A stretch of DNA of 50,911 bases from NCBI GenBank assembly GCA_000182565.2, contig KQ257455.1; one strand, given 5' to 3'. The position numbers were made by a program, and so were the translations under genes. The notes beneath the pieces are model-generated. The model was given only the letters and a program-made list of their open reading frames with translations, had not been told where the DNA came from and did no database searches. Positions within the stretch are counted from its first letter, which is position 1; every line of letters starts with the position of its first letter. The stretch comes from Spizellomyces punctatus DAOM BR117 (taxonomy: Eukaryota). Shown here in pieces: positions 21,470 to 48,078 of the stretch.

Positions 21470-21676
21470 CAGCCTTGCAATGTAGCGAAGTATTTTGAGA
21501 CCTAACCCGACTGAGCAACTGTAAATATGTCATTCTAGCATTTGTATATAAAGGTTAGCTAGTACGAAGGATGGGCGTTCCGCCAATTGTTGATGCATGA
21601 GCTGTCAAAAATCATGGCTCGAGAGAAGCCTACTCCAAAAGCTTTATTGGATTGAACTGGCTAAAATATCAAGCCC

Positions 21677-22594
21677 TTAGTTGATCTTCAACAATTCCAC
21701 CTCGAAAGTCAAGTCGGCCTTAGGGGGGATACCTACAAGTACATGAACTGTGAGTAAATTTGGCATTGCGATTTTACGATGCGCTCAGCGGCTTTACCTG
21801 CGGGGTGACCCCTGTACACAATATCAAAGCAAAGCCATTAGCGACTGCAATATGCAAAGAGGATCAATGATCAATGGCACACCTTTCACCGTATGCGTAG
21901 TCGTATGTGATAAACAGCTTTGCCTTTTCACCAAGAGACATTTGAGGCACACCTTCGTCCCAGCCTGCACAATTACTGGTCAGTCCCGATCTCAATGCAG
22001 GCAATGAGATGATGCGAATGAATTACCCTTAATAACCTGTCCGACGCCAATCTATGAACAACAGATCCATATTATCAGCAGTGGCAGATTACGTGATAAA
22101 TTCCAAGTCACAGTTGACGATACCTTGGTGACGAAAGGCTGGCCACGGTCCCTGCTGCTGTCAAACTTGCCACCATCCTTTGTGAACTGAATACCAGAGC
22201 AATGTAAGAGCGTCCTCTTTAGTCAAAGGACAAGGACAATGCAGTGATACTTACAGTACCAACATAGTGCATGGTGACCGAGTCACCCTATTAAGATCTT
22301 GGCGTTAAATTACGAACAACAAGCGCAAGTGTGCTTCAACCGCATAAAGCTATCATCTTCATACCTTCTTGGGGAAGTTGACACCGTCGCCGGCCTTGAT
22401 GGTTTCCTTAGTGACACCCTAAAGCAAGCCATCTGAGTACCATCAAAAGGAATTTGGCGTGCACCATATAGAATGTGAAAGGCTAATTGCCACAAACATA
22501 CCATGTTGAAAGCAGAAGCGTGAAAACGACGTGTCAAGAGTGTTTGATGAGATGAGATGCGAAGCGAACCGAGTGGGATGGTACGACGAAACAT
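21677..22594 (-). CDS. FPR1: FKBP12-type peptidyl-prolyl isomerase with in-frame upstream mitochondrial presequence
   Basis: Spliced [30 protein letters not shown]...FDSSRDRG...[12 protein letters not shown]...YAYGERG...[17 protein letters not shown] from the ATG at 22504. An upstream in-frame ATG at 22594 adds [30 protein letters not shown]. Confidence 0.92.
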
Positions 22595-22674
22595 GCTCAA
22601 AAGCTGAGGAAGGCCAGGGGTCGATCACCTCCTTTCCATAACAGGAACATAAGCCACAGTTGAGCCATCTCGGG

Positions 22675-22688
22675 ATAACCATGGCAAC
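22675..22688. promoter_or_regulatory. RFX X-box-like motif in the FKBP/ATP16 bidirectional promoter
   Basis: ATAACCATGGCAAC matches RTHNYYWTRRNRAC and sits at the midpoint between the two ATGs. Confidence 0.55.
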
Positions 22689-22755
22689 TGGACACTCGGC
22701 CTTGAGGTCTCTTGCCGACCTCGACCTTCCCCGTAGCAAAATCCCACAACGAAAC

Positions 22756-23645
22756 ATGTTCCGTTTAGCGACTCGCGCGGTCCGTCCCATTGCCCGATAC
22801 CCTCTGGGTAGGTCAAAACTGACTGTGGAAGGGGTGAGATGAGTATCCTCATGTACTTACCGTTCTCGTAGCGCGTGCCTATGCAACCGAAGCGTCCGGC
22901 GCTGGCAAGCTCCGCTTGAGCTTTACCCTCCCTCATCAGGTGTGTTTAGGACGCAGTGCTGACAATTGAATTCATTTGGTATGATGGGCATGAGAAACAG
23001 GAGGCGAAAGCAAACAGATCCCCGAATTTGGGATGCATTCGCCCACATATTTCTGCCCGAGCGCCGTAATAGTGTTATGCCCCCAATCGAATGAGAAATT
23101 TCAGGAGGATAGACCTGCGCTAACTGCAATCCTCCAATTACGATACATAGACCCTCCTCAGCGACGTTGAAGTCACTCAAGTAAACTTGTCCTCATCTGA
23201 GGGCGACATGGGTATCCTCGGGGAACACGTACCCACGGTTGCTCAGCTGAAACCTGGAGTAATTGAAATCTTCTCCGCTACGGACAAGCCCAAGAAGTTC
23301 TTTGGTAAGTACTGCCGGCACATTGTAGTCCAAGGCAGAAGTTAACTTGCGTGAATCCATCGCAGCAAGCGGAGGCTTTGCCATTATCAACCCTGATTCC
23401 ACCCTCAACATCAACGCTTTGGAGGCCTTCCCTATTGAGGAACTTGATGTCGACGTAAGCTCGCGGTGCATCTATTGATGGAGACGGGTCAGCTAAATAC
23501 ATACTAAACATGCCAGGCTGCCCGCCGCGCTCTCGATGACGCTACTCGCCGCTCAACCTCGGCTGCCACCGAAGCAGAACGAGTCGCCGCCAAAATTGAA
23601 CTTGAGGTGTATGAGGCTGTGGTTACCGCTGCCGGGAAGCAATAA
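22756..23645 (+). CDS. ATP16: Mitochondrial F1 ATP synthase delta subunit
   Basis: Presequence MFRLATRAVRPIAR; KLRLSFTLPHQ, QVNLSSSEGDMGILGEHVPTVAQLKPGVIEI, SGGFAIINPDSTLNINALEAF and AKIELEVYEA. Confidence 0.92.
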
Positions 23646-23718
23646 ATTAATGTATCTACGGACTCACGAAAAATCGTAATAGTTGCAACGTCATTTGTAT
23701 TTTTTTGAGTTTCAACCA

Positions 23719-25309
23719 TCATTGGAAAAACACCTCTGCTGCACCCTCCGCCCCCTCGAGTGATATGACTCGCTCCTTCACTTTATCTGACCATTCCCCA
23801 AGCCTGTCGCGGATGGTTCCAATTTGAGTCTTGTCCAAAACTCGTGGCTGCACCCAGGTTACCTACGAGGCATACTAAATCAGCCATGAATGTTCAAATG
23901 AAAGAGGCATCGGTTAGGAGACATACCATCACGATCTGATCCACCTCATCAATCTTTCCTTTGATCAACCCTAAACTCAATGCTTTCATCACCAGATGTT
24001 CCACCTCCTCAATTAACACCCTGGTTTCTTGTGAGATCGCGGCAAAAGTCATGCGTCCCCGGGACTCCTTACTCCGCTTGAATACGGCCTCAATAAGGGT
24101 CATCAAGCACAGTTTTTGGCGGAGGAATGGAATCGAACTGACAAGAAGGGGCTGTAAACCGGTAGCAGTAGCGACATGAGATGTGATTCTAATCATTTGA
24201 GCGAGATTGCTCCTACCTGCTTCAAAAAGTCACCACTTCGGCTGATTTTCTCGAAAGCGTCCATATCGCCACCATTGAAGCAGAAGAGCATGTGCCTGAG
24301 CCAGTCATATCCTGTGCCCTTCAGACTATCCAAGATTTGATGCTGAAGCTGTGACACATGGATGAGTCTCCTACGAACAAATGACCCACTACAATAGATA
24401 GTTACCAATTCCCCAAAGTTGTACACGCCTTCGCCAAGAAGTGCACTAATTGCAAGCTCATATGCGCGCTCCTGTTTCTCCAAATCGCTCAACTCCTCCA
24501 AGGAGACCGATGACAGGAATAGTAAGGCATTGTGGTAGTATTGCGGGTAGGCCATTTTCGCCTGTGGTGCAACTTGGATGAGGCTTTCTTACAAAAGATT
24601 GATTCAATATCCAGCAATTAACCTTGTAATAATCAGCAGCAACACGATAGAAGCTCGCATTTATCACTGGCTCGGTCACAGGAAGTTCGTCCAATATCTT
24701 CTCACACTCGTCAATCGCCGCCTTACAACCCTCCAAATCTCCTATCGCACGCTTGTAATGAGCCGCTTCCATGGTGGCCAGTACATAAGCGTCCTTGGAA
24801 TCAGCCTTTTCCTTGAGCTTGTCTGCTTGGTTGGTCAAAAAAGCCAGCGATTCCTTGGGATCTGAAAGATATTGTGTTTAATATGGCCCATATTCAATTT
24901 CACGCTCATAAAAGTATTACCTCGGAGCTCTCTGCTGGCTCTTGTAACAAATCTAACCAGACTAAGCTGGTTCATTTTCTTCTCCCAGTCCACGATGAAG
25001 TTCTCGTACAGAGCAAATAGGTGAGACCCAGAGGACGGCTGCGCGACAAAACTCTCCAGCGCATTCGTCAGTTGATGCCATAGTCTGAAAAACGAAAAAA
25101 ATCGGGCATTCAGCGACAAGAAAGACCAGAAATATCACCTTTAACTCAGATACGTCAGGTATTATTCGTTTCATTCAAGAGGCTTACTTTTTGTCATACA
25201 AATCTTCAAATGTTGTGTAAAACTCTCTCAACTCTTGGGGAGCTTTTGCCCGCTGCTCTCTCAGAAACACCGTCACATCGCGGTCCAGGTCCATCGACTC
25301 CACACCCAT
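23719..25309 (-). CDS. RPN9: 26S proteasome lid subunit Rpn9/PSMD13
   Basis: LYDKKLWHQLT, LAISALLGEGVYNFGELL, EVEHLVMKALSLGLIKGKIDEVDQ and VTWVQPRVLD (PCI domain); multi-exon. Confidence 0.93.
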
Positions 25310-25415
25310 GACGCTTGCTGTTCTCGTCTGATAAACCGAAAGGAAGAAAGTTGGATGGACGCAAGATGCCTTTTACGTTTTGCAGCATACGAGTCCTGTA
25401 AGTGACGCGTTCGTC

Positions 25416-25429
25416 GGCGCCATGGTAAC
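25416..25429. promoter_or_regulatory. RFX X-box-like motif (with adjacent ACGCGT at 25405-25410)
   Basis: GGCGCCATGGTAAC, one mismatch to the X-box consensus, in the RPN9/hypothetical divergent gap. Confidence 0.45.
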
Positions 25430-25474
25430 CTTAATGAAGATTAGGTGATCATCCCGTCTTGACCGGCCTCCTTC

Positions 25475-28400
25475 ATGCGAATAATTCCCATCACCGCTGC
25501 AACGACGATGCCCAGCATGCCGGACGCGGCTAGTTCCGAGAACACGTCTTCTACGTCCAACGGGCCCTTCTTTAACATTGATGATATTCTTGGAAAGAAT
25601 TCGGGATCAGACGAAGCCAATTTCCAGCAGCTCTTCAAACCAAATGTTCGTAACATGGCAGCGCCTGTTTTCAGGCCGTTGCTACGGCCAGGTCTGCGAC
25701 CGGCTTCTGTGCGCACTACTTCCTTGCTGGAGCAGGGTGGGTCTCTGGCAAGTTGAGCCGGATATCTCATAGATAGTGGCTGACCAATGCAACTGTCGGG
25801 CACAGGAGATCAGCATCCCTCGTCCGCATCCCAAGAACTGCTGTCCGTAAGCAAGGCGGATAGTGAGGACAGAAGTGCAGCAACAATACCTTCTAGCACT
25901 AGGAAGTTTGTTCCATTATTAAGATCAAAGGGAGGACGGGCGCCTTTTCGACAGTTGGCACATGGTGCCACAGGAGCATATGATTGTACCGACAGCCCTC
26001 CCGTTGAGAGACCCAATTCTTTAGCTACGTCAACCATGTTGCAGCCGCAAACGACTATTACTCAGGGTCAATCTGCTAATATGCCAAACGTCGTGTCGAG
26101 TCAGACATCCTCTTCCTCGCCTTCCTTAAACCCAAAAGTGAGGGATTTGGCAGTAATGGACAAGCACGATAATGAGCCAAGAGATTTATCAATATTGTTG
26201 CTTTGTAGCTGGCGCATGTGATTGTGTCAGAACGAAGAGATGAGCCGGTATGAATCATAATCCTACTGGTATGATATGCAGTGCTTGTTTGACCCACCAC
26301 TGATGGATCGGTAGACGCTGAAAGATGCTCCAGGGAGCAGGCTGCCGAAATTAGGCACGCAATGCCATTGAATTGAATATTCTCAGGCCCGTGTTTTGAC
26401 TTTACCACGTTTAGAGAAACTACGAAACGCAATCAACCACCCGATGCTACCGAAAGCCGTACTGCCCCGACTTGATCAAAGAAGTCCTTTTGTGCGGCGT
26501 GGATCTGCAGATAGAACGGGACCTGAACGGGTCACAGCAAAAAAGATTGATGCAGCAGCAGAGGGGAAAGAAGTGCTATCTGATAATGATCGGATGAATA
26601 TCTCATCAAGTGCCTCGACAATCTCGATGGGCGACGCAGTGGGTGTGAGGCAAAAGAATACCTCAGCTGAAATATGCGGTGAAGAGAAGGTATTGCCGCA
26701 TGTTAGGGCTTCGTTAAGCCTAATTCAGAACTGAAGCACTGCTTTGCTTATACCTTGATCAGCCGAAGGGTATCAAGCGTATCTTGACGCCAGCTGTACC
26801 TAGAGCTATTTTAGGCTCCATTCAGAGGCCATCTGTTCGGAACCTGCCTTTAATGCATGCCCCGCCCTTGGTATCAGCCTCAGCCACAACGGAGAGGCAA
26901 ATATCCCCGAACCCCAGTTCTACTTCTAACGCTGCCGCTGCGCACGCGACTGTGACGTCAGGAGTTGAACATCACCAAGCCAAAACTGTGATAAGGGAAC
27001 GGTCTCAAAGTTCTGCACTTCTTAGTCCATCTTTAGGAGAAGATGGGCATTGTGGTTCTAAGCCGAAAGATGATGACGGGGTGTCTCCAACTGGTTGGTT
27101 CCTGGAGGTCCTCTATGTTTTACGCTCATCAGTTTTACGCCTGACATCTTCTAGATATGGAAGTTTCGCGTGATCCATTGCCACAGCGGCCAATTACACC
27201 GCAGCGTCGTTGGTCTAGAAGCACTCCAATGTCTTCTCGAGGTTGTACTCGCTGACGATTGGCAGTAAATGACTTTGACCTGGTTGACCTTCAGTTGTAG
27301 AGGACGGTGCGTATCACAGCCCTCCTGCGACGCCGCAAACGTTAGCCGCACATGGTGGGTATCCCGGAAAGCGACTATATTCTTGCATTAAGACGTCACC
27401 AGACTCTGTGTCCCCTGAGCACCTTTATTCACCCTGGTTGCTCTCCTCTCAGAGCAACCAGAGCAGCGCCGTGAACGCACAGGCAATAGCGAATCGGATG
27501 AGTTAGGTAAGTACACGGGAAGCCCCTGGATATGGCCTGCGATGTACTTCGCGTCGTGGCCCAACCCTTGTCCAGCTGCCGGTAGAGCTTACGTACCGAT
27601 AGCATCCTATGGTTCCTTTCGTTGCACTATAATGTTCCGGACGACATCTCACTGATCCATCCCCTTAGCAACACGAGGCGGTGAGCAACGGCGGACAGAT
27701 GAATCCCGCGGGGGCATGGTGTCGAATAAGAGGATCCACTCTGGATCAACGATGCAACCACCAGTTCCGCAGAACCTGTTTGGTACGATAATCGGTGGCT
27801 CACATCTGATGTTCTATTTCCTCTGAATATGACAATGCCTGCAGAATTGTCCCAAAACGCGGTACAGCGTGCCAATATGTATGCTGGGCAGTTTGAGCAA
27901 TTGTCAAAGGAGAAAAGTCTTGCTCAGAGTGTATCATTGTTGCCAAGTGGCACGCAATACCAGCGGCCAAGCACTCCTGCCATTGAAGCAAGGGATTGGA
28001 AGACAATCTGCACGACAATTGTAGGAGATGTGCTTATGCTGGTGAATAGCGGATTCTTGATCACATTTCTGTATCAGACACAAGAAGTGGAGCAGGCCAC
28101 CCGTCAGGCACTCGATGGTACGTGTTGGATCAATGCATTTGCAGGCAATGGATGGTCTGATTGGCTGCTTACAGGAATCGAGCAAGACAATCGGTTCACT
28201 CTACGACAGCACATGGAGGTAAATCACAGTAATCTTCTCCAAATATGCAGCTCGTCAAACCTGTCTCTTCTATGCAGCTCGATCAGATCGACCGGACCAT
28301 GCAGATTTTGCGGAGTGAGATCGCAGATCAGCGTGGTATGCGCAGAAGTTTCAACATGGGTAACATATGATCACCACATAAGTAGTATTCCGCCCCTCGT

Positions 28401-28754
28401 GTAGCACGGATCCTGAACATGGCCTGCGACATGCTTATACTTTTGCGTGACGACGAGCTAAAGCCGCCCGCGGAAACAAGGGATTCCAAGAAGCGGAAAA
28501 GAAATGAGATGGATGAGGGGCGGGACGCATCTCCTCTTGAAGCTTCCCACTCCATCCCAGTTGTAATGGACACGGCGCATGCACTCAAACTAACCCCACT
28601 TGATTCCCAAACAGGCGACCCAGGGAGTGACCATGTATCAAGCAGCGGCGAAGGCAGTGAACCTATTTCGAACACCAAGGATTCTTTACAGCCTATTAGC
28701 ACTGTGAAGCATGACAAGCAGGACTCGGACAATGAATCCGTCGATTTGATGTAG
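25475..28754 (+). CDS. Hypothetical multi-exon Ser/Pro-rich protein with C-terminal helical region and KKRKR NLS
   Basis: Chain of same-strand ORFs (25475, 25787, 26396, 26784, 27829, 28419) separated by GT-AG intron-like gaps. The exact exon structure is not resolved and no family was recognised. Confidence 0.55.
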
Positions 28755-29129
28755 TTTTCTATTATGTACTTTGTCATTACCTGTTTATATATATATATGT
28801 TCATTGCCTTTTCAAATATGATACTTTCAGCTGTAATTCTTCAAATTGACAACTGAGACGCAAAGGTCACGGTCACCAAATGCCGAAAAGACATTTGTTT
28901 GGATGACAAGAAAATGGAGCCATGATACTGCCTTCAGTGACCGAATGTCCTTTATTGAAGAAATTAACCTGGGGTATCGGCTGCATTGCAGCTTGAGGAC
29001 ACTCTGACGTCTCAGAAACAAGGCGCGGGCAGGTTCAAAGCATAAAGTCGTCATCCAAACGACCCAAAATCCCATCATCAACAAAAAAAAAAAAATTCCA
29101 AACAATCACCCAAACTAAAGCCGAACTTG

Positions 29130-29928
29130 CTACTTTCTCTTCTTCTCCGCTCTTTGTTGCCCCTCCTCATCACTCCTTCTCCTTTTCTTCCTCAAAGAAG
29201 ATGATGACTGAGCAGCACTTGACAATCCCACGGTTGCTCCAACTCGATTCCCACCTCCAACGCCGCTCGTCGCTGCGTTCTTCATTATAAACTCTGCATC
29301 CTCCGCCACAATGATTCTGTCTCCTGGGATGCTGGTATTGTAAAAAATTCGGGAAAGGGCGGGAAGGAATACGGGCGGGTTATCGTCATTCCGGCAAAAA
29401 GCGTAATAAAAGTTGGTCTTTTAAAAAGACAAAGGGGCATTCGTTAATACGTTTTACGAAAGTTTATCTGTCATAGAAACATACCTCTGGATTCAGATAG
29501 GTTAAAACACCATTGCACTCATCGGCCAATTTTAACTCTTTTGGAGCAGCAACGCCGTCTCTCATATCTGTCAATCCGACACCGCCATCCGGGAATTTCG
29601 AGTACAGTGACCGAGAGAGGGACGGATAAGGATAATGCGTGTATCGCCAAAATGGATGTGCATCGTCTACGAGATCTGTTGGCATCATGCGACGGTGCTG
29701 AGGACGCCGAGAGTAGGGTGCATGTCGGGATAACGGAGCGTATGGGTATGGGTCGCCTGAAAAGTAGGGAGGCGGCGGGGGACGAAGGTAGTTCCAGAAT
29801 GGTGTTGGAGATGAGATGGGGCGGTGAGGTAGAGTGCTGCTGGTGGGTGCGGGATGATGACGGCGGTAACGGGGACGGGTGTGGTGGGATGTGCTGCTGC
29901 TGCTGTGGGATTGAGTTTCTACTTCCAT
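29130..29928 (-). CDS. Hypothetical two-exon protein (Pro/His/Tyr-rich N-terminus, basic C-terminus)
   Basis: MEVETQSHSSS...KFPDGGVGLTD...LTYLNPE|TNFYYAFCRND...RKKRRR...AEKKRK-stop; one canonical intron near 29418-29484. Confidence 0.65.
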
Positions 29929-31485
29929 TTTTGAGCAGTGAGACAAGATGGGTGGTGTATGGCGGTCGTGAACCTTGAATGTGTGAAGGAGAGTCCAGGT
30001 TGCGAATCTTGATGTGGAACACTGAGTATCGTGGTTTTGAAAAACTGGCGATATAGAACCGAAGTAGCTACGGACCGAGTTCCTCTTTTGACGGTCACCT
30101 ACGTCACAAATACTCTTACAAAGTCTGAAAGGAGGTTTTCAGCCTCGGAATGTCAAAAAACAGTATATCGTCCGGTCTCGTAAGCTCCCAAAAAAAGAAA
30201 CAACCCAAGATCTTGCTGTTAAAAAAAGCCCCGTCGACCTCCACCGGCTGTATCGGTGAATATGTACGGTTTGAGCGTCCTATTTCCTTTATATGTTCGA
30301 CTAGAAGGGCATGGCGGTGTATAACGTTCTCTTAATGTGAGATCTTGTGTGTAAGATTTGCGTACAAAGGGGAGCTTGTTGGAGGATATGTCAAAATGGC
30401 CACCTGCCTCGCGCTTGACCCACCAAGAAACACCAGATCGATACTCAAGTCCAACAAAACCAATACAAAGGCAAATAAAAAAATGTCCGAAGAGACTGTC
30501 TGACCAGTTCTGTCACAACAAACACCCCAAGCAAAAACAACTGCCCAACACCACCAAGTAAATCGACAAAGGAACTCAACCCTTCCCAACCCCAACGATT
30601 GTAGCGAATATTATTATTTTTAGGCCGGTTTAACACCGTCTAGTCCTTGTCCATACTGGTCTATAATGTCTGTATAAATCTCGGGCCACAACCTGAGGGT
30701 CTAAAATTGGGAACAACATCGTTAGCTGTCCTCAGTCCATGCCGGGCCTACAGCACAGTAGACCGGGCAATTGTTTTCATATAAAATGACTCTTTCGGCC
30801 ATCATCGTTGGATGGAATCCTGAGAGCTGCGATACATAAGCGCCAATTGCAAGATGTGAGAGCTACAGTTCCTTGATTGGGGACTTTGGCCAGCAGTTTC
30901 CTTCCAAAGCGGCACTTGAAAAGATCCAGTGATTATGTCACCCAGCACACGTGACTAGATCAGTTGCATTTTATTATTCAACATCTACAATCCACCACAC
31001 AACAACCATCGGATGGCCTCTATCGATGACCGTAACCTCCGGACGTGCCTTTGCGAAATATAAGCGAAAGACCAATGCCAGGGAGCGCCGCTTCGCATAG
31101 CGAAAGTTACTCTTCCCAATTGCCAGTTAGCCAAGTAGCTGTGGGAATCTACAGTAATCATAACTCTTGACACTATAATAGCAGTATCGCATCGTTTGCA
31201 TCGAACTTTCTCACATTTTCACAGTCTGGCGAAGGTCATTCGCGGATCTGGCACATTGTTCAGCAGTGTAGAAAAAGGGCTTCGAAAGTATGATTAGGAT
31301 ATTTGTTCAGAAAAGGACCTGGACTGCTAGCAGATGCTGAGCATAGTTGCGATGAGAATAAGCGGTTACGCGCGGGTGCCCTTTCAGCTTGGAACATGCG
31401 GGGCGGTGGTCTGCCGAAGGCTTCGCACAGTGGGACTGACCACAAAGACAGTTCTGTCATCGTGGACGCAGATATAAATCTAATT

Positions 31486-33693
31486 CTAGCCAAGTAACAA
31501 CTTTTGCGGTACCATCACCAGTCCAAACCCTTCGATACCATCCACCATATCACCAGGCAAGGCTACCCCATACTTGCCCAAAACAGCGGCAGCCCATAAG
31601 AAATCATTAACCTGTATCCAGTTGCACAGATCCCCTCCGACCTGAAGAACTGGCATTACAACATCTTCAAAGTGCTCTACAATATCCTCTTTTTGCTCTG
31701 CTAGGATGGACTCTACTTCCTGGGGTTGTAAAAGATCCGGCAAAACCTGCTTCCAAACACTATCCTTGTTTGTCTTTTCGAAAAGCAGAGCAATACAGAG
31801 AAGTGTGTCCTCGTCGAAGGTTTCCGCAAAATCCTCCTGTAATGAGGCCTGCAGAGTGTCAACAGCACTAATAAAAGGGTGCGAAAGGTGTTCATTCGTT
31901 AGGTTGAGGAACAGAAGCGTAGTAAGTGCGTTCGAGGAGGTGGGCGGAACAACGTCCCGGTAATGGTCTGCACGTGCTCTTTCAAAAAACTTTTGGAGAG
32001 TTGTACGACAGAGGTTCATGTTATGCTTCAAGATCGTACTCTGGCCTGTCGGGAGATCGTACCGTCAACAGATGATATTGGACAGTGGGCCATTCCACTA
32101 ATACGCACCGTCACGATATGTCCTGACCATCCTAGTTCGGTACTTCCCATCCTCTTGAACAACCACATTGCTCAGATCTGAAAGCTTTTTGCTCATCAAG
32201 CTCCAAAGGGTCGCCAAAGTTGCTATTTCATTCCTGCTTCCCACGATAGCGTCATCCTTCCAGGTAGCACTCAGTTCACAGGAGTTCATGACCAAGATGC
32301 GTGTTACAGTCAGCAGATCTTTGGGAAGCTCGACTTCGTCGTCTCCTGCAAACAGGAGATGAACCAGTCTATTTGGAGTCTTGCAAGCGAGCATATCCCG
32401 CTTCTTCTCTGCCAAAGGGTCCGAATCGTAGATATTCAGGGCCACCTTGACGTAGTCTTCAGGATTCGGGCTCAGCACAAAACCGTAGTTCCCGAGCAGG
32501 TTCTGACGATAGGTCAGGTGGAGAGCGTAAATGGCATACATTTGCAGCATACCTCATTCCCTTTCGCTCCATAGTTATTGAAGATTTGCGCTCCAGCCTC
32601 AATGTTATCCAGTGTGACAAATGTGACGCTAGTCTTGTCAGCGATCTGCCATTCGATCCGCTCGCCACGACGATGATTTAGCTAAATGAGATCGAAAGTA
32701 GTCAGATACCGACCTGTAGATTATCTTGTGCGAGAAATCAATGCTGACCATGTCCAGGATTGGATACAAGCACAGTTCACTGGTTCCCTCTGCAACTTCT
32801 ACAGCCTCCTCGGCAGCATGCTCACGGTCTTCACGGGATGTGTCATTTCTTGAACGCGGAAATGCTCGGCTCGAAATTGCTGAATATGCCCACAGCATAT
32901 TTTCCCTGTTTCCAAGCCAAAATGATTCAGAAATCAGATGGCAGGAAATCAAAATATCTTGTCCATCTCTCGACAGGGAAAGACCATTTCCATACCATGT
33001 CAAGCTATGTTTCTTAAAAAGATCACCACAGACATCCTGCAGAACCTTCAAGCCGGTTTCCAACACTTTCCTTCGCTCTCTCACAATGTGCTTCAGTCCA
33101 GTTCCTCCCAAAAGTCGATCAATCTCCTCTTCCTCCCACCAGATGGGTAGCTCATACCGCCGTGGTAGAACCTCCAGGTATGGGCGCCAAAATGACGTTG
33201 GATTTTCATATCTCTCGTAGATGAGATATGCAGAGAGAAGGATGAGTCCTGGAGCGTAAGGGTCTCGATTACTTTGTGACAGCAGAGAATAGGTTGCGGG
33301 GTTATCGACAAAGTGCTTCGTAAGCCGAGCGCCCAGGTGAGACGTCCGTGCCGTCGCTTCAGAAAGGATAAGGTGGGCAGGGATCTGGGCGATAGGGCTA
33401 TTACATGAAATGGCACGACGTGCATAAACTGTTCGAGTAGCGTTGAAGGGATCTGTTTTCACACCGCATCAGCTCTACACTTCACATTCTTGGTTGGGTA
33501 AAAACCCACCGTCCCCCGCTTCTTCTCGAAAGTCCAGGTTATCCACGTCCGCGCCCTGTTCCACGGCCCATTTTAACAGATCTCGTACACATTCCGAGTA
33601 CTTTTCCGCTGTTTCTCGCGTATCTGAAGACTTTAGTTTTTTCTCCAGTCGATCCGGCAGTGGATTGCTCTTGCGTTTTTCAACTGTCGTCAT
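31486..33693 (-). CDS. SET-domain protein lysine methyltransferase (Rubisco LSMT/SETD3/Rkm-like)
   Basis: LLKWAVEQGA, SFWRPYLEVLP, MLWAYSAISSRAF, LYPILDM..NH, IFNNYGAKGNE and NLLGNYGFVLSPNPED; multi-exon. Confidence 0.88.
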
Positions 33694-33748
33694 TGGGTGG
33701 GCCGAATTCAGTGAAGTCCATAAAGCGTTCGATCTGGTCGATGCCGAT

Positions 33749-33762
33749 GTTGCTATGGATAC
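33749..33762. promoter_or_regulatory. RFX X-box motif in the SET/uL22m bidirectional promoter
   Basis: GTTGCTATGGATAC (reverse complement GTATCCATAGCAAC), a full X-box consensus match centred in the 130-bp gap. Confidence 0.55.
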
Positions 33763-33823
33763 CGAAAATGCAAGGTCGTTGGACGCTTCGCTTGCAACGA
33801 TCTCGTTGACATTCTTGAACAAC

Positions 33824-34905
33824 ATGCTACGACGGATTGGTAGGGGTCCTCTATTGCATTGGCAGATAGAGGAGCTTAGACTGACTGAATCCTGTTCTTC
33901 GCTTTTCATAATAGGACGTGTTCAACCGGCCCTTGTGGTCCGCAATGCGACCAGCGCCAGGTAAGGCTCGTTTGTGAAGCGAGTGCCGGCGAGTAACCAG
34001 ACGTGAAGAAACTAACTGTGGGTGCCGTTTCAGGGCGCTGCAAACAAGTGTACCATCGCCCTCAGACGTCACAAGTACATCCACGCCGCCCACCACCGCC
34101 TCCAAAGCTCCCCAATCCTTCCGCCCAAGCGTTTACCCTCGCATTCGAGACTTACTCCGAGATGGCGCTTATGAATCGCCGCAAACCCTTCAGCAAACGA
34201 CCGATCAGCTTGAGGGTATCCGACGTGCACAGGAAGCTGTGGCGCAAGGTCGCTATGCGGTCCTTCAACCAAACTCGACATCCAAACGTCCGAAGAAGCC
34301 TCACCAAGCTTTCCTTGCGCGGCTGAGGGAGGATGGTGGTGACAAGATTGTCAGTTTCCGGAAAAACTTTTTGCACACGGAGTACACACGATTCGTTACC
34401 CTGTGCGATCAGGTCAAAGGTTTGACTCTGGATCAGGCCTTGCTCCAGATACGATGGTTGAGAAAGCCAATCACCAAAAAGATGGAGGAAGCTTTAAAGG
34501 AGGCAATTGTGAAAGCAAAGGAGCAGGGCCTCGACTTGAAGAAAACATTTGTGGGTTAGTGCCTTTGGTTAGAAGACACATGATCCCACTGTTCAACAGC
34601 CATTGACTTACTCATTTTACACAGCTGATGCATACGTAAAGGAGAACGCTGCAATTCTCCAATCCCAACTCGTCAAGCGCTATCTTCGTGGCCGTGGCCG
34701 TTACGGCGCGACTCCTCATCCTGTGACGGCACTCTTGGAAATTACACTCCAAGAGCGAGAAAAGCCTTTCAGCATCCGTGACAGTGACCCATTGGAATGG
34801 CTGCGAGAACGGCTGAGGGACCGCCAACGACCGTTTGTGAAGAGTGCGGAGGAGGTGTACAATGATGTGAGAAGCAAAAGACCCATTAAGCAAGTGTTTT
34901 GTTAA
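33824..34905 (+). CDS. MRPL22: Mitochondrial ribosomal protein uL22m
   Basis: Arg-rich presequence; LCDQVKGLTLDQALLQIRWLRKPITKKM...TFVADAYV...RYLRGRGRYG...LEITLQE fits the L22 family pattern. Confidence 0.8.
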
Positions 34906-35128
34906 CATGGCGGGAGGAGAGGAAACAGGTCGTGTGCATTACCATTAATAGCAAGCAATAGCTCTGTTTCATCAAGCAACAAGGAAGGTGCTTACAATGC
35001 ATGTTCAAATTCAATTGGTGGACTGGAGAACATCGATTGTATTGTCAATATTATTAGACAGATGATATTTATCTACAAAACATTTATGTAACAGATACAT
35101 GCAAAAAAAAACTACTGAATGAGGTCCT

Positions 35129-35682
35129 TTAGCCGCCGCCGCTGCCGCCTACTCCTCGTGCCAACTGTCCAACAGCCCCAATGGCAAAACCGAGACGATA
35201 CGCTTGATCTGCGAACGAGAGAGATGCTGTTTAGCCCAGCTGCTATCAAATGCACTGCGACCGATTCCAAGGAACGAATAAGGTACCTCTTTCGGCCTTT
35301 TTCTGGGGATCCTCTTCACCCTCCCCTATGGTGTACTCTGCACGACACTTTAGGCATTTCACTTCTTTCATTTTTAAACAGCACAGAATGCCACAACTAT
35401 GGGTAAAGCATTAGTCCAGTCCGGAATACAGAGCGAAACAAGACAGGAGAGAAAGTTACGGGAAGAGAAAGATTGCCATAACGTAGGCAGAGCGAGGATA
35501 GTAGGGTTTTGACCACTCGTGAACGGCTCCTGTTGGGCATGTTGGAGACTGCACATGCAGTGAGATTGTGAGTTATCGGGCATGACAATCTGGGACCAGT
35601 TGGGCAATCCACCTACCGATGGGTCCCCTCGTTCAAAATGGTCGTCGTAGGGGGGCGGCGGTGGCTCTGGCTCGTTGGACAT
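35129..35682 (-). CDS. BRI3/LITAF-like small membrane protein with PPxY motif (4 exons)
   Basis: Spliced MSNEPEPPPPPY...CPTGAVHEW...AYVMAIFLFPCGILCCLKMKEVKCLKC; the hydrophobic core FPxGILCC followed by CxxC is typical of BRI3. Confidence 0.75.
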
Positions 35683-36594
35683 GTGGATCTTGGATAATTG
35701 CAAAAACGAGAGTTTTGGCGAAAAGGACGGCGGCTGGTCATGTTCAAACGGCTTACTTAATACGGAGTCACGGGCGATGGGCATGGTTGGAATGGTTGGA
35801 TTGGGCTTTGGATTAAATGATCAGTAAGTGGGGCAGTTGATGGGATTTTGTTGATGAAGATGCTCACCGACTTTACAGTCAGCAACTATTTCTGCCATTA
35901 ATAAAATATTCCAAAAATACGGGATGCGGAGGTGATTGCCACAGTCGAGAGTCGAGTTCGAAGCAATTACGATTCTTGATAGAGCCACGATCTACACAAA
36001 TAATTATACGCAGCTGAACCATGCATTCGTTTTCTGATTTGCGGGTTAAAGTTGGGCAAATCAGCGAGAGTAAGGAGACTGATACATGCATATGCGACCG
36101 GGGTATTTTTACAGCGGTACTCAAAAATGTTTGCGCTCCAGCTGAAAGATTAGTTTGAAATCAAACGACGAGCCGAAGGCGTCATAAATAGAACTTAGAG
36201 AGCCCAATGGAGCGAGGGAAAGATGACGAAATATACATCGGGCTATCTGTGAAAGTGCGCACGGACTCTTTTCCATCAGGAATGCGAGGAAATGTAAAGC
36301 GAAAGTCCTAACGCTGTAATTCAGAGAACCATTCAGCAGCCGCTAGCAGTAGTAGTTAAGTACCGACTAGGGGCACCAGCGAGATCCAATATAATGATGA
36401 AACCTGTCCTGCAAGCAACTCCACTTTTCCGCTAGATCTAATCCAAAATGCCTTGGCTGCGCAATTCACCACCATATATATCTTCATCGGCCAAGCGTTA
36501 TTTGTTTATACTGCTTGTTCAGCCACGTGAGCGCAGCCGATTATGGCCAGCGATCAACGATGTGACTGCTGGTCCATGAGCTCTGGGTTTGAGC

Positions 36595-38865
36595 ATGTGG
36601 ACATTCACACCTCATCTGCGCCATACAAAATGGTTACGGCCGCACCGTTTTTGTCGTCACTTTCTGCAGCATGTGTCAGACGGTAGCAAGAAAAGCTTCT
36701 CTTCGGCGATCGAACCACCGTCGCTGCCTGTCTCCATTTACATTCACTGGCCGTATTGTGAAAGGTTTGAATACTGTTTCTTGGACTCTGTTGCTGGAAA
36801 AAATTGCTGGCAGCTAAGTAAGGATTCTCATGTACGGAATTTGCAACGTTCTAGTAAATGCACATACTGCTCGTTCAACAAGTATCACATACCTCAAGGG
36901 TGAGTGACAAGAACGACCCGATAGACGTATTGTGATAGCTCCACAGTTGCAGGCGGAGAAGGAGTACAATCCATCATCTCTGACAAGCGCTGATAATAGA
37001 GGGCAGGACCATGACAGAATGGAACACGCTTTATTATCAGAACTAGAGCACGCCCTCTCGGTGCCTCTAGAAAATGTTTTGAATCCCGATAAGGTTCCGC
37101 CCACATCGAAAGGGGAAGCACCTCGGCGACGAGTGAATTCGGTATATTTTGGAGGAGGCACCCCGAGTTTGGCAAGGGTAGGATATACATATAGTCATCC
37201 GTTCTTTCCTTGGTATTTCGTATATGATGGAATCATCATGGTTAATAGATTCACGCCTAATTGTCGTTTATCGTCCATTACTTGTCCCCCTTTCCCGTGG
37301 TGCCTTTTTTGATGCTTCATGCACTAGCCTACGATGATATCCTCCATTTTGGACCTGATCGCCTCGAAATGCAATGTTTCACCATCGATGGAAGTAACGC
37401 TAGAAGGCAACCCAACGGTGTGTCCCAAACCTCAACCGCCCGTGTTGCCCTGCAGAGTCTCACATGTATCCTACCAGTCTAGTGAAATGGCCCGTCTACG
37501 AGATTTTCGTGCAGCAGGGATTAATCGCATGTCCCTGGGCATCCAGGTGAATGACCCTATACTATTAGATTCTGGATAAATAAGCTCCGGGGGTTAACTT
37601 AAGCAATACATCCGCCTAAGGCGCTCGATAACAATGATCTCCGCTTTTTTGGCCGTGACCATTCCGTGATGGAAGGTATATCAGCCGCCCGATCTGCCGT
37701 AGAGTTGTTTGATGCCGTGTCGTTAGATTTCATATGGGGAAGACCTCGTCAAAGTCTTCATGCTTGGGAGGAGGAGCTAGGGGTAGGCTCTGTCGGCTTG
37801 TGCAACCTATTCGCAGGCAGAGTTTGGTAACAGACGGTTTTCGACAACAGATTGCGGCAGCCCTCAATCCAACGCATCTAAGCCTTTACCATCTGACAGT
37901 TGAACGTGGAACACCGCTTTTTGACTTTGCGAAATCTGGGAGTGTTTCTCTCCCTAATGAGGATGCGTCCGGTGAAATGTACGAAAGGACCGTCGAGGTT
38001 GGTGGTTCGGTGACCACGGTAATCAAGAAATCGCTCACCATCTCGCGGGAAAGGTCGCAGAGAAAAACGGTTACATTCAGTACGAAGTATCATCTTTTGC
38101 AAGGGATGGTAATCTGAACAATAGAAGTCGGCATAATTTGTCTTATTGGACTGGCATGGATTACATAGGTTGGCAGCGTACCCCTTGGTTGGGAAGATGA
38201 CCCTGATATTCGTTATGAAAGTGGTAACGCATCGTCGGTCGGTATAATCTAGGAATCGGTCCAGGTGCTCATGGCAGGTTGTACGGCGCTCACGACTTTC
38301 AAAGATTTCGAACCTTTAGAGTGAGTGAACTTTCATGATAATATTGCAATTTAACATCAGTGTGACGAATTCCTACATAGATCCTTGATCCAAATACCTG
38401 GATGAAACAATGCGAGGAGATCGGGCATGGGTGAGCTATTGGCATAATTGTGCCATCCATCCCATGAAGACGTGTTAATGCAACATTTTCAAACAGGATG
38501 CGAAAAGTCGTCCCGATGCCGCATCAGCAGACACTTCAGGAACTCATCGTATTAGGCCTCCGTACCAGTGACGGTGTGGATTTTCGCAATCTGTCACTGC
38601 ACATGGCAAAGCATGTGGATTACATCATGGAGGTATGTCGGCATTCGCGACATAATCCGTATGGATGGTTCTGATAGTCCTGTAGATTCTGGACTTCGCT
38701 CGTGCGCAGGATTTTGTGGATGCTGGATTATTGGAGTGGATTGATGGACAGGTGGTTTCTGTAGGTGGCGGACGGTGGGTAAGCGGAATTCGACCGACAA
38801 GAAAGGGATTGGCCGTTGTGGATGGTATAGTGGTTGAGATAACGTCTCTGAAACCGGGAAACTGA
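36595..38865 (+). CDS. RSAD1: Radical SAM heme chaperone HemW/RSAD1, mitochondrial
   Basis: IYIHWPYCESKCTYCSF (CxxxCxxC), SVYFGGGTPSL, EVTLEGNPT, GINRMSLGIQ, QYEVSSFA and HNLSYW (HemW-specific HNxxYW), GIGPGAHGR; basic presequence. Confidence 0.9.
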
Positions 38866-39658
38866 GGATTGGAACTGCCGTTCAACACGTTTAACAACGT
38901 GAGCATACCATGCGGGACTTGATGAGAGAGGAAGAGAAAGTGTAGGCGAATGTGAGAAAGTGCGAGCACAAGAAGAGTATAAGGATGTTCAGACTCAATA
39001 TACATATGAGCCGGATTGACTTTGGCTCCCCTTGCATGGTCCCTATTTTTGCACCGCTTGGCCTAAATTCAGTCTTATCGAGCATTTTACATACTATTAT
39101 CCCAAGGCCCCTATTACAGCAAGACACTTCCGGCATCAGTGTCTTGTCTATTACATCTCTTCCATATTAATATAATCGTAGCAGGCAACCCACGCAACTG
39201 TGCAGATTGTCAACGAACCTCTGGTGTTCGAGTGATCGTCTTGTTGCCGACAGCATCACCGGCGTGCACAAGTTGGAGGCCATGGTTAAAGGAAAAACGG
39301 GGGCGGGAGCTGCTGCGGCCTACATCTGATAGGTGCATCCACGGCATGCTCTTGGGGGAGAGAGACAGTGGGGCCCAATGGAAGCCTTGTGCGCAATAAA
39401 TAAAGATTTTGTCGCAGAAGACTACAGGAGGATGTAGTATGGAAATGGTACGAATACGGCGTCTGCAAAGAAGAATCTCGCTCAGACCTTTTGATCGTCG
39501 TCGACCATCAACAGCCTTGCTCATCCTAGCAAAGCAATAGGTAATTGGTCATGATCATCATCAGGAAAGCTCACAATACTTATAGTGGCCAGATGAACTG
39601 ATGTAGGTATTCCTGGCCGCATGTTTGTGTCTCAATGGATACTATTTTATATTCAATT

Positions 39659-42600
39659 TCAACCGGCCTTGTCTTTTTTCTTTCCGCTAAACATGCCCCT
39701 AATCCCCTTTTCTTTTCCGTCTCGCGCTAAGCTCACACTAGTCGAACTCCGGGACATGCCGTTATCGGCATCTCCCCTCCCAACAGAAGCCGACGCAGAC
39801 GATAATAATTCCGTCGACGCTGCTAGCCCTTTAACTATCTCCGACGATGGCGTAGCGTTACCCAAATCTTTCAAAATCTCGACGAGTTGCACCGGGTTAT
39901 ATATATGTGTCGTCCCGATAATCACATCTCTTTGCAACTCTTTGATCACTTCATACGTTGCTCGTAGCTCAGAGAACGTTAGCCCACCTAGAGAAAAGAG
40001 GATGATTCTTGGGCCGTTCTTGCGCAACTCTGACGAAGAAACTTGTTGTTGTGTCTGCTGTTGTGACTGCTGAATTGTATCTGGTTGTGTGTCATCGGAT
40101 GCCTTTTTTCGAGGCGTGGCCCATGATGCGCGAGTTGTGCGTAAAGAGGTTGGGTGTGATGGATCGGGAGGGATAAGCGCCAGCGCTTTTTCGCGGGGAG
40201 TTTTAGTAGCGTTTGTTGGCGGTGGTGGAGGTGGTGGGGCAAGGTCCTCCGGTGGGGGCTCTGTGATCCAGGGGAAGATGGTCGAATCCAATTGATTTCG
40301 TATTTGGTCCTATGGCTTTTGAAATTATAAACTGCTGCCGACGGCGTGATAGAATTTGATGCATACCTGCAGCACGGTTTTCAGGACGGGAGACCATCGA
40401 CTCAAGTCATAGGTTTCCCCCTTCCTCTTCTTCTGTCGATTGTGAAGGTGGTATGTGTACCGACCCCGGTCCTTATCTTCCTTGCTTTTCTCCTTGGACT
40501 TACTCAATCGAACACCCACGAGAGATAAGTTTGTGATTGCTTGTGAGTCCTCCACAGAAAGCTTGGCGTATCCCAGTAACCGACGTCGCTCGTCGTCCTC
40601 TATTCCATGTTGGGTAATTATATACAGCATCAAAAGACGGAGCTTGTCGGTTGGGCTTTCAAAAAGTCAGATTGTGATCGTGCATATGCAGTGAGGGGCA
40701 GGATTCTTATTGCGGTGCCTACCTAACGTTGTCGCTATCCAAGGCAGGGACCATGTCCATCATAACATTGGCAAACTTAATGGCTCTCCCATCAACCGAT
40801 TCACCCGTCGCGAGATCCTATAAGACCGATACAAATCCTGTGAGCCAACAGCCCCTCTGTAGCGAGCATAAGGTACAGCAACTTGCCTGCTCAACGGCGG
40901 CAACCATATCCAACTGCCTTCTCTCAAACATTGTCTTGCACTCCTGGCAAATGTTGATGTGGACTGAAAACTACTCGCGTACCAGGCGTTAGCCAATATT
41001 ACCTTCGTTTTTCAAAGCACAACAGCAACGACCAGGTACCTTGGACTTCATCTCCTGAAATTGGGGTAATGAGCTCAACGTGTCTTTCATTTGTTTAAGA
41101 GAATCGATCCCCTTTGCGCTGTCAGTTAAAGGTAAACAATCAGCTCACTGTTCGTTTACCACATGCGTGTGCGCAAACCGGTTACCTAGCGTCACCGCCT
41201 TCTTTCTCCATAGCTGTGGCTGCAGCTCGATTCTCCGTTAGGAACTTATTGAATGTACTGCGAATGTACTCAACGGCGTCCGCATAGTGCCAGTGACGAA
41301 TTAGCATCTGAATTGGTGTCAATCAACTAAATAGATTAGAAGGTGCAGGAAAGTTGAAATATTGGCCGCATGCTTACCCAGATTGGATCATTTTCGTCTA
41401 GGCTGGCGGACGTAACTTGGGCGGCGGAAGCATCCGTCGATGCTCCTCCCTCAGTCTTGTATCTAATTGTCCCGAGATGATGCCTATTCAGCTAAATTTC
41501 ATTAGCAGGCAGTACAAGGTACTCACATGTACTTTCCTCCCTCCAGCACCAACAAATCATTCATCATGGCTTGGTACGTAAACTCGTGTACCAAAGGTGA
41601 TACCATATCCAAAGCCCTATCAACAATCACAAGGACAGAACGCTTGTAAGGACTAGGTGGCGGAAAATCTGGATCCAATCGGCATAGATCATCGAGCTCT
41701 TGCTGGACTCTATGGGCCAGTTTCGAAGCGACCGTATTTTGGGTGCCTTGTGGTGAGTAATATCGGATATAAGGGTAGTCGCCCAAGGTGGAAAGAACAG
41801 AGATGATCTGGTGCGCTTAGGAATTGAGATGGCTGTGACCGAGGAGTAAAGGGGACCGGCAGCGAGTGGGCTTACACGTTGTGCTATGCTGGTTATTTCA
41901 CCTGCTTGGTGACCTGCGGCTTGGGGATTGTACAAAGGGAAGAGGGAAAGCGGTTGTTCAAAGGTGAATACTTGTGGTTCGTACGCTGGCGTACGCTCAT
42001 TCGTTAGAAAAGGTTTAATGTCCCTTTATGTTAACCTTGGCACATACCAATAAAGTCAACATTCATTTCCTTTAGGGTTTTGACATAAGCCGACGCGGCT
42101 GAGGTTTTTATCTTTTCAAAAAGATGATCCGGTAATCCTAGCAACAGGCAAGATACGACATGTTGGCTCACATTGACGTACAAAGGTATGGCCTAACATA
42201 TTCACCTGCAACGAAAAAGACATGTGCGGCAGCATACATGGCCTTTCCTTTTTCGAAATCTGCCAGAAATCGATCTACGCAGGCGTCCACTGGTGAGATA
42301 AAGTAGATGGCCTCCTTAGTCGGATATGGCTGCCGCTTTCGTGTCAAGTCTTCCACCACTTCATAATCAAGTAAACCTGGTTTAGCCAAGCCAAAACTAT
42401 GCACCCAATTCGACGACACACACAGGTCACATTTTCCTCTAGAATATCATGCATCCTGCAAGCCGTATTCAATATCTTGATGGATTTAGGATCAACGACA
42501 ATGATCTTCCATTTTCCGGGAGGCTGTACGGATTGGATCATGTCCACTAGTATTCCTGTGAATGGTTGCATGTTAGGGGACTCTGGGTCGGCCTAGAAGG

Positions 42601-42666
42601 CGCTCAAACTTTGTCACGTAACAGCATGAACCCACTTTTTTTCATCAATTCCTTTATTGACGACAT
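39659..42666 (-). CDS. SEC1: Sec1/Munc18 SM protein
   Basis: WKIIVVD, RQPYPTKEAIYFISP, IVDRALDMVSPLVHEFTYQAMMNDLL, YDLSRWSP and RIILFSLGGLTFSELRATYEV; multi-exon. Confidence 0.93.
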
Positions 42667-42861
42667 TCTGGCAGATATACAGTTGTCAACGTCTCATTGG
42701 ATAGATTCACCTTGACGTCCCCAGTGGAGGGTGTCACTTGAAGGACAACCGGAGGCCTAGAGGACAAGACCACGACGCGCTCTGCTGCTCACGTAACATT
42801 CATTGCATGACTTTGCAAACTTCTCCAGTGCTCAGTGGTACAGTCACAGCGAAAGCACTAT

Positions 42862-42875
42862 AGCTCCATGGCAAC
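42862..42875. promoter_or_regulatory. RFX X-box-like motif in the SEC1/LOC1-like divergent gap
   Basis: AGCTCCATGGCAAC, one mismatch to consensus, about 70 nt upstream of the ATG at 42944. Confidence 0.45.
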
Positions 42876-42943
42876 GCAGCCTCGTCGTCTGTCGTGCTCC
42901 AGAAACCTGTTGACACTGACAACAGAAAATCACAATCACCAAA

Positions 42944-43642: not shown

Positions 43643-45001
43643 CTAAAGTAAAAATACAGAAGAGGTCATTACTGCGCCTACCGCCAGGGCAGACCGCCAA
43701 TATGTGCTCACACTTCTTGTGGCATCACTGGCAATATTACCGTCGCGGACATTCTTGCCAACCACCAACTCTACGCTTCCTTCCCATCCCAGCAGCCTAA
43801 GACTGTCTAAAATCCCTGGACCATAAACGCCGCGTCCACCAAACCTTGCAATCAACTCGTCTAATGTCTTTCCGACCATATCCCCAACTGTTGGTACCAT
43901 TAAAAAGTCCTGAGAGTTTGAGTAGGAAGCGTCAACGTGTGTCAGGGTCGATCCCGGTTCGTACGATCCCGGACTGCGTGTCGAGTACAGAGTTGTGTTG
44001 CGGAGAGCGATGGATTTCGTCGAGGAGGTGATCGCCTTGTAAAGGCTGGCGGCCGCTGAAAAGGGGGCACCGCTGGATTCAAATGAGGAGATAAATGATG
44101 ACAAGGAAAGAGACCCGGATCCTTGAGGCCACCATTGTTGTATAGGGATAACCTGGGCTTCTATAGACTTCCCAGTAGGGTCTTGGACGAGCTTGTCGAA
44201 AGGAGTTAGGAGAGTCCATGCGTCGACGCTTGGACTTGCGATTGGGCCGTGTAGATACAATTGTGGCGCAACGTAGGGATTCTGCGTCGATGAAAAATCC
44301 TTGTACATCACCGAAAACGGTACCAATGAGGTATCCCAACCCATTCCGTGGGTAAACTCGTGGGTAGCTACGAACTCAAAATCGGTCTGGTTCGGGCCAA
44401 TCGTCTGTCCTGAAGACTTGAACCAAAAGTCGAAATCCGAGTTGAATTCAGCCATAATGTCGTAAGGTGCATAGTCTAGCTTAGTGTCATGCTTGCTTTG
44501 CTTGACGAGAGATTGAGGGTATAAATAAAAACGAGTGTTTTCCGTGTCATCACCTGTAGCAGATTGCGCTTTAGGCCGAGCCGGAAAATAGGCGGCAGGC
44601 AGCGCCATCCCTAACGTGTTCCCCATATCCCCACATCTGTCCTTTCGTCTTCCGTTACAAAAGCTTCTAAATGTGGCATGAACTCTGACCCTCTCTTTGA
44701 TCGAAATCATTTGCGAAATGTACTGTCCAGCATTTTCAAACCCTTGTTGAGCGAATCGACAGGTTTGTTGGGGAGCGTTTGGACACACAAATGTGATGTC
44801 AAATTGGGAATTTGCGCGGCGACTATGCGCATTAATGGGTGGCAATGATGGCTCATGCTCTCGTGGCAAAAAGGGGTAGGGTGTAAGGTGAGGCGAAAAT
44901 GGCGATATTCGGTCAAAGCGGGTGACAATGTCCTCCGCAATTGCTGACCGGAACGAGTGCGAGGCCAAGAGGAGGAGGTAAAGTCCATATCGGTAGAGCA
45001 T
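43643..45001 (-). CDS. Secreted, probably GPI-anchored zinc metalloprotease (HExxH)
   Basis: Intronless. Signal peptide from Met at 45001 (MLYRYGLYLLLLAS...); DFEFVATHEFTHGMG, distal GSTLTH, FLMVP Met-turn-like motif and a hydrophobic C-terminal tail. Confidence 0.8.
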   Translation of the reverse strand: MLYRYGLYLLLLASHSFRSAIAEDIVTRFDRISPFSPHLTPYPFLPREHEPSLPPINAHSRRANSQFDITFVCPNAPQQTCRFAQQGFENAGQYISQMISIKERVRVHATFRSFCNGRRKDRCGDMGNTLGMALPAAYFPARPKAQSATGDDTENTRFYLYPQSLVKQSKHDTKLDYAPYDIMAEFNSDFDFWFKSSGQTIGPNQTDFEFVATHEFTHGMGWDTSLVPFSVMYKDFSSTQNPYVAPQLYLHGPIASPSVDAWTLLTPFDKLVQDPTGKSIEAQVIPIQQWWPQGSGSLSLSSFISSFESSGAPFSAAASLYKAITSSTKSIALRNTTLYSTRSPGSYEPGSTLTHVDASYSNSQDFLMVPTVGDMVGKTLDELIARFGGRGVYGPGILDSLRLLGWEGSVELVVGKNVRDGNIASDATRSVSTYWRSALAVGAVMTSSVFLL

Positions 45002-47963: not shown

Positions 47964-48078
47964 GAATTTGGATCAAGAATTTGGAACTGACAGGACCGGA
48001 CCCATTATCTGAAACTGATTCGGCAGGCTCCATACGCCGACGTCCACAACTTGGCTGTCTTGAAAGCTAGAATAGAAC

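Follow-up and report, generated by a model that had tools for sequence, protein, structure and literature searches.

What reads the short promoters between head-to-head genes in a fungus that has cilia? In animals and choanoflagellates, the master regulator of cilia genes is RFX, and chytrids possess both cilia and this factor. The chytrid Spizellomyces punctatus expresses RFX, and the function of the factor in chytrids is described as unknown in the available part of a recent study (Coyle et al. 2023, PMC10530576). Here we ask whether X-box-like words in four divergent promoters of non-ciliary genes, all in one 50,911-nucleotide stretch of S. punctatus DAOM BR117 (contig KQ257455.1; hereafter the window), are RFX sites. 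We found that all four share a ten-base core with one perfect RFX half-site and that X-box patterns are over-represented in the divergent promoters of this window. We consider these sites probably functional, and we hold at even weight the fuller proposal that they are both functional and read by RFX, as half-palindromic, promoter-proximal elements of X-box type.

The four sites had been proposed in a sequence-only reading of the window as 14-mers, and the sequence and coordinates of each read as claimed there. In the following lines, the two genes of each promoter are given with their strands.

22675-22688, plus strand: site 1, ATAACCATGGCAAC, with core CCATGGCAAC at 22679-22688, in the FKBP (minus)/ATP16 (plus) promoter.
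25416-25429, plus strand: site 2, GGCGCCATGGTAAC, with core CCATGGTAAC at 25420-25429, in the RPN9 (minus)/SPPG_04329 (plus) promoter.
33749-33762, minus strand: site 3, GTTGCTATGGATAC as read and GTATCCATAGCAAC on the minus strand, with core CCATAGCAAC at 33749-33758, in the SET-type (minus)/uL22m (plus) promoter.
42862-42875, plus strand: site 4, AGCTCCATGGCAAC, with core CCATGGCAAC at 42866-42875, in the SEC1 (minus)/"LOC1-like" (plus) promoter.

The pattern RTHNYYWTRRNRAC, by which the sites had been recognized, is matched in full at 22675 and, as the reverse complement, at 33749, and with one mismatch at each of the other two sites. Common to all four is the narrower core CCATRGYAAC, made up of CC, an AT spacer, and then one perfect half-site RGYAAC. 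The half-sites themselves (GGCAAC, GGTAAC, or AGCAAC) are the canonical RFX half-site, GTTRCY on one strand and RGYAAC on the other. The ciliary X-box consensus is given as GTNRCC N0-3 RGYAAC, with half-site GTTRCY, in the portion of the study available to us (Coyle et al. 2023, PMC10530576), and sites 1 to 3 each differ from this consensus by one mismatch.

The intact half-site faces a start codon that lies 68 bp away at site 1 (ATP16), 46 bp away at site 2 (an upstream in-frame ATG of SPPG_04329; 88 bp to the annotated ATG of that gene and 107 bp to that of RPN9), 56 bp away at site 3 (the SET-type gene), and 69 bp away at site 4 (the LOC1-like gene). Sites 1 and 3 had been described as lying at the midpoints of their promoters, and the start codons of FKBP/ATP16 and SET-type/uL22m bear this out, while site 4 is off-centre, with 196 bp between it and the SEC1 ATG.

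Genes in this stretch are arranged head to head, and we could delimit six divergent promoters, which together make up 1,977 bp, or 3.9% of the window.

19899-20332, 434 bp: D1, between a HYDIN-type gene (minus) and a GPN gene (plus).
22595-22755, 161 bp: D2, between FKBP (minus) and ATP16 (plus).
25310-25516, 165 to 207 bp depending on the start used: D3, between RPN9 (minus) and SPPG_04329 (plus).
33694-33823, 130 bp: D5, between the SET-type gene (minus) and uL22m (plus).
35785-36594, 810 bp: D6, between an unnamed proline-rich gene (minus) and a HemN/HemW-like gene (plus).
42667-42943, 277 bp: D7, between SEC1 (minus) and the LOC1-like gene (plus).

The sequence-only reading had estimated about 0.1 full matches to RTHNYYWTRRNRAC by chance in divergent intergenic DNA, and our own figure, 0.10 expected in the 1,977 bp, agrees. 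Across the whole window, the same pattern occurs 4 times against 2.57 expected, a count reached by 31 of 100 shuffles, and two of the four matches (at 22402 and 27659) are not among the proposed sites. These counts weigh against the X-box proposal, and little can be read from so loose a pattern. The core behaves differently: the window has 4 copies of CCATRGYAAC where 0.35 are expected, none of 100 shuffles reached 4, and every copy is in a different divergent promoter (D2, D3, D5, and D7). For the stricter CCATGGYAAC there are 3 copies, with 0.23 expected. Since the expected count of the core stays at about 0.3 for every Markov order from 1 to 5, and since CCATGG itself is under-represented in the window (6 copies against about 14 expected), the excess is not a matter of base composition.

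We also counted patterns that were fixed in advance, using the six divergent promoters and, as a null, 300 dinucleotide shuffles of those regions. Among them was the X-box palindrome GTTGCCATGGCAAC.

Palindrome GTTGCCATGGCAAC, up to 3 mismatches: 3 observed, 0.11 expected; reached in 0 of 300 shuffles.
GTNRCC N0-3 RGYAAC, up to 1 mismatch: 3 observed, 0.45 expected; reached in 5 of 300 shuffles.
GTNRCC N2 RGYAAC (2-bp spacer only), up to 1 mismatch: 3 observed, 0.08 expected; reached in 0 of 300 shuffles.
Half-site GTTRCY: 7 observed, at least one in each of the 6 regions, 2.95 expected; reached in 6 of 300 shuffles.

Thus, X-box patterns are over-represented in the divergent promoters of this window. 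In a blind search with all 10-mer seeds from the six promoters, CCATGGCAAC was the sole top word, present in four of the six regions at up to one mismatch, and CCATGGC was the sole 7-mer found in three of the four short promoters, although this 7-mer sharing is weak (1 observed against 0.32 expected).

How much these counts can carry depends on how far the resemblance could be due to chance, with four short promoters of balanced AT and GC content happening to hold X-box-like words. Several results weigh against the proposal that the sites are RFX elements and toward this explanation. The full X-box GTNRCC N0-3 RGYAAC has no perfect match anywhere in the window, none of the four sites is complete, and the left half of site 4 is degenerate, with three mismatches to GTNRCC that all fall in that half. 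The claim of RFX X-boxes stands for one perfect half-site in each of the four sites and for three sites that are one mismatch from consensus, and it fails for a full X-box. Window-wide, the loose patterns are at expectation: the palindrome with up to 3 mismatches occurs 5 times against 2.52 expected (reached by 13 of 100 shuffles), and the consensus with up to 1 mismatch occurs 20 times against 13.7 expected, with a null range of 5 to 21. The core was defined only after the sites had been seen, the maximum of the blind search was equalled by some word in 4 of 40 shuffled sets (P of about 0.1), and ATGGCAAC occurs eight times in the window, with five copies outside promoters, in coding or other DNA. 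A look-elsewhere discount applies to the X-box resemblance, and the core is missing from two of the six divergent promoters (D1 and D6), one of which is ciliary in type. Even the sequence that comes closest to a full X-box in this window, GTTGCCATTGTCAAC at 20494-20508 (1 mismatch, 3-bp spacer), is a by-product of coding in an exon of the GPN-loop GTPase gene, since it encodes the conserved GPN motif VAIVNLDPA; we rejected it as a candidate for this reason. In contrast, the X-box patterns specified beforehand run 7- to 35-fold over expectation in the divergent promoters, with 0 to 5 of 300 shuffles reaching the observed number, all four copies of the core fall within 3.9% of the window, and the top blind seed is exactly the core of a motif for which S. 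punctatus expresses the factor. On balance, we regard chance as somewhat unlikely but as an explanation to be taken seriously.

It is also conceivable that the sites are a real promoter element built on the rare palindrome CCATGG and used by another factor, or in a core-promoter or positioning role, so that their X-box likeness is superficial. The best-conserved part of the sites is CCATGG plus AAC, all four have a poor left X-box half, the window otherwise avoids CCATGG, and the distances to the start codons (46 to 88 bp) are shorter than those of Caenorhabditis elegans X-boxes, which are given as 100 to 250 bp in the available text of Chu et al. (2010, PMC2873420). But site 3 has CCATAG in place of CCATGG and still has the half-site AGCAAC, and the invariant RGYAAC is exactly the RFX half-site. 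To our knowledge, and with no search aimed at it, no other factor has this specificity. We consider a role for another factor rather improbable.

Because CCATGG contains an ATG on both strands, we considered whether these words could instead be contexts of translation starts, either true starts or those of upstream open reading frames (ORFs), and not transcription elements at all. In site 1, the ATG shares the reading frame of ATP16 and lies 25 codons ahead of its start, with no stop in between. However, the 25-residue extension that it would add is acidic and stands before a typical presequence, MFRLATRAV; in site 2, the ATG begins an ORF of 8 codons; site 3 reads ATAG and so has no plus-strand ATG; and in site 4, the ATG begins an ORF of 97 codons in a frame other than that of the LOC1-like start. 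In addition, at the seven start codons of the window that we checked for this, position -3 is A or G and no CC comes before the ATG. We consider this explanation extremely unlikely. If transcribed, the ATGs of CCATGG would be harmful to translation, which suggests that transcription begins at the sites or downstream of them. For site 4, the 97-codon ORF argues for a transcription start downstream of the site.

Returning to the proposal that the sites are RFX elements, the analysis shows that the sites are present, with their shared core, local over-representation, and position, and it shows the identities of the genes and of the species; that the sites function, and that RFX is their reader, we infer. 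In the mechanism we propose, the core would consist of one canonical half-site RGYAAC, an AT spacer, and CC as a remnant of the second half. S. punctatus RFX would bind this core either as a monomer or as a dimer that makes one strong and one weak contact. Since the sites lie 46 to 88 bp upstream of a start codon in very short head-to-head promoters, one bound factor could serve both genes. Bound RFX might then raise or set the transcription of a non-ciliary gene set, with mitochondrial, proteasome, secretion, and ribosome-biogenesis genes among its members.

The closest known parallel is Sak1, the RFX protein of Schizosaccharomyces pombe, which shows that non-ciliary RFX regulons exist in fungi. 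In the part of the Sak1 study at hand, the motif GTTGnCntggcAAC is found at mitotic genes and is bound in chromatin immunoprecipitation sequencing (ChIP-seq), half-sites are described as probably functional, and at least one target pair is divergently transcribed (Garg et al. 2015, PMC4538799). The S. punctatus core CCATGGCAAC corresponds exactly to the nine right-hand positions of that motif, and this, together with the expression of RFX in S. punctatus, strengthens the case for RFX as the reader. The two systems also differ. Sak1 sites are fuller palindromes at cell-cycle genes, with forkhead sites alongside, whereas the S. punctatus sites have a degenerate left half and belong to genes that are not obviously cell-cycle genes; no forkhead consensus was seen in the S. 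punctatus promoters when inspected by eye, without a formal scan. Sak1 binding is moreover seen by ChIP-seq, while the sites described here are known from sequence.

Compared with the ciliary X-boxes read by DAF-19, RFX1/2/3, and cRFXa, the sites in S. punctatus have the same half-site, a 2-bp AT spacer, and a promoter-proximal position, but they lie 46 to 88 bp instead of 100 to 250 bp from the ATG, none matches the consensus perfectly, and their targets are non-ciliary. Non-ciliary targets are also known for Crt1/Rfx1 of Saccharomyces cerevisiae, which acts through X-boxes of DNA-damage genes, and for RFX5, which binds the X1 box of major histocompatibility complex (MHC) class II genes. The latter is, like the S. 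punctatus sites, an X-box with one good half. Unlike what we propose here, Crt1 is a repressor of a small damage regulon acting from more distal sites, and RFX5 at the half-site X1 box depends on vertebrate-specific partner proteins.

Two sets of words near the sites were recorded as separate observations. ACGCGT, the word of the MluI cell-cycle box, lies at 25405-25410 in the RPN9/SPPG_04329 promoter, 6 bases upstream from site 2; both E2F and SBF-type factors are said to be retained in chytrids. The 8-mer AGGTGATC (GATCACCT on the other strand) is common to the FKBP/ATP16 promoter (22623-22630) and the RPN9/SPPG_04329 promoter (25443-25450), with each copy about 50 bp or less from the RFX-like core, and the 6-mer AGGTGA/ATCACC is found in four of the six divergent promoters. 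AGGTGATC or AGGTGA may be a second promoter word. Outside the divergent promoters, GACGTAATGGCAAC at 3318-3331, which contains ATGGCAAC, lies 164 bp upstream of an unnamed gene that looks single-exon (ATG 3495, plus strand) and may represent a fifth site, weaker than the others and in a promoter that is not divergent, and TTTGCCATTGCAAT at 47025 is tied to no promoter and falls in a stretch of low coding content (45200-50200).

The genes that flank the promoters were identified by Pfam hits on ORF translations, with start codons fixed by translation.

9789-19904, minus strand: giant gene of ASH/HYDIN-type Ig repeats, ciliary in type (Pfam).
Plus strand: GPN-loop GTPase (Pfam), the head-to-head partner of the HYDIN-type gene.
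ATG 22594, minus strand: FKBP (Pfam FKBP_C), introns confirmed by RNA read joints.
ATG 22756, plus strand: ATP16, ATP synthase delta (Pfam ATP-synt_DE_N), introns confirmed by RNA read joints.
ATG 25309, minus strand: RPN9/PSMD13 (PSD13_N, PCI, and Rpn9_C), introns confirmed by RNA read joints.
25517-28751, plus strand: SPPG_04329, an annotated protein of S. punctatus DAOM BR117 that maps here with 100% identity over whole exons, which identifies the DNA as that of this strain; annotated ATG 25517, with an in-frame ATG at 25475.
ATG 33693, minus strand: SET-type gene with a Rubisco-LSMT substrate-binding domain (Rubis-subs-bind).
ATG 33824, plus strand: mitoribosomal uL22, here uL22m (Ribosomal_L22).
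Plus strand: HemN/HemW-like gene (Pfam), a partner in D6.
ATG 42666, minus strand: SEC1 (Sec1 family hits).
ATG 42944, plus strand: lysine-rich "LOC1-like" gene, a label without Pfam support for that protein.
43646-45001, minus strand: 452-aa secreted protein, with which a Spizellomyces sp. "palustris" protein shares 91% identity.

By these assignments, the eight genes that flank the four sites are non-ciliary or of no known function, as the sequence-only reading had held. A CFAP161 gene, which that reading had named as a ciliary gene, was not located in a Pfam scan of 389 ORFs. The sole recognizable promoter of ciliary type is D1, beside the HYDIN-type gene. It contains only the half-site GTTGCT at 20002, with no CCATRGYAAC core and no palindrome site within 4 mismatches. 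This agrees with the part of the Coyle et al. study available to us, in which no motif was enriched in S. punctatus ciliary-gene promoters (Coyle et al. 2023, PMC10530576). The other divergent promoter that lacks the core, D6, has only GTTRCY half-sites, at 35881 and 36414.

RNA data for part of the window came from one S. punctatus run of short, 3'-biased reads over 20000-39999, which gave introns and no start sites; site 4 is outside the region covered. In this run, the neighbouring motif-bearing genes are expressed, as judged from the 3'-biased depth, with depths of 10 to 270 in the neighbours of SPPG_04329, and SPPG_04329 is nearly silent, with a depth of 0 to 0.3. SPPG_04329 encodes a serine/proline-rich protein of 764 aa with no Pfam family, and its S. 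"palustris" orthologue is about 65% identical. A minus-strand reading of 25444-25809, which would have made the RPN9 region tandem, was rejected because SPPG_04329 (plus) and this orthologue map there.

The broadest claim made for this locus was that RFX is a general organizer of short bidirectional housekeeping promoters, with an ancestral, pre-ciliary role. Reb1, Abf1, and Rap1 offer a functional analogy, since in yeast a single sequence-specific factor of this kind occupies the nucleosome-free region of housekeeping promoters that are short and often divergent; the DNA-binding domains and motifs of these general regulatory factors are unrelated to RFX. Translated to chytrids, a single RFX would occupy the nucleosome-free centre of housekeeping promoters that are short and head to head, and would drive both genes, which we consider very unlikely to hold as stated. 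The core is found in four of the six divergent promoters, including all four of the shortest (130 to 277 bp), the half-site GTTRCY is present in all six at the excess given above, and the expression of motif-bearing neighbours would fit such a role, as would the lack of an RFX motif at S. punctatus ciliary-gene promoters in the available text of Coyle et al. However, all of this comes from six promoters in one 51-kb window, two divergent promoters are without the core and the genes of one of them, D6, are also expressed, and motif-bearing SPPG_04329 is nearly silent. Beyond the core in four of six promoters of this one window, the claim of a general organizer found no support. As to its evolutionary part, the non-ciliary job of RFX would be the older one, with cilia genes joining RFX only toward choanoflagellates and animals, and to this we attach the same low probability, since an ancestral role is not inferable from one species. 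That a non-ciliary function of RFX came first is already one of two options in the preprint of Coyle et al., in the part available. Most fungi are described as having single RFX genes in the accessible part of one survey (Chu et al. 2010, PMC2873420), and RFX is called a family rare in early-diverging fungi in the available text of a paper on DNA affinity purification sequencing (DAP-seq) in Rhizopus.

Some other features of the window were also recorded. In the 3' part of FKBP, RNA reads skip 147 bases at 21734-21882, with non-canonical ends AC..CA and 11 other letters inserted (40 reads), and loose ends are numerous in the vicinity; a difference between strains or an alternative 3' structure may account for this. 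After position 35102, 32 of 166 RNA reads have an extra A, at a place where the 3' ends of uL22m (plus) and a minus-strand gene overlap. Over approximately 5 kb, at 45200-50200, the coding signal is very low and neither strand gives a Pfam hit. As for related DNA, a metagenome scan with the SET-type exon gave one weak, unrelated locus (32% over 43 residues) among 116 pattern matches, a look-up of look-alike sequences found none, and for a 43-residue N-terminal reading of ATP16, no homologue scored among 17 candidates.

In a full-text literature search, we found no published report of RFX-type sites at non-ciliary chytrid promoters. If the sites described here are real, they would be the first concrete candidates for RFX targets in a ciliated fungus, all of them non-ciliary. 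What would be new, if this is true, is a non-ciliary RFX regulon in a ciliated fungus, and a pre-ciliary role of RFX would then become testable by a few oligonucleotides and one genome-wide count.

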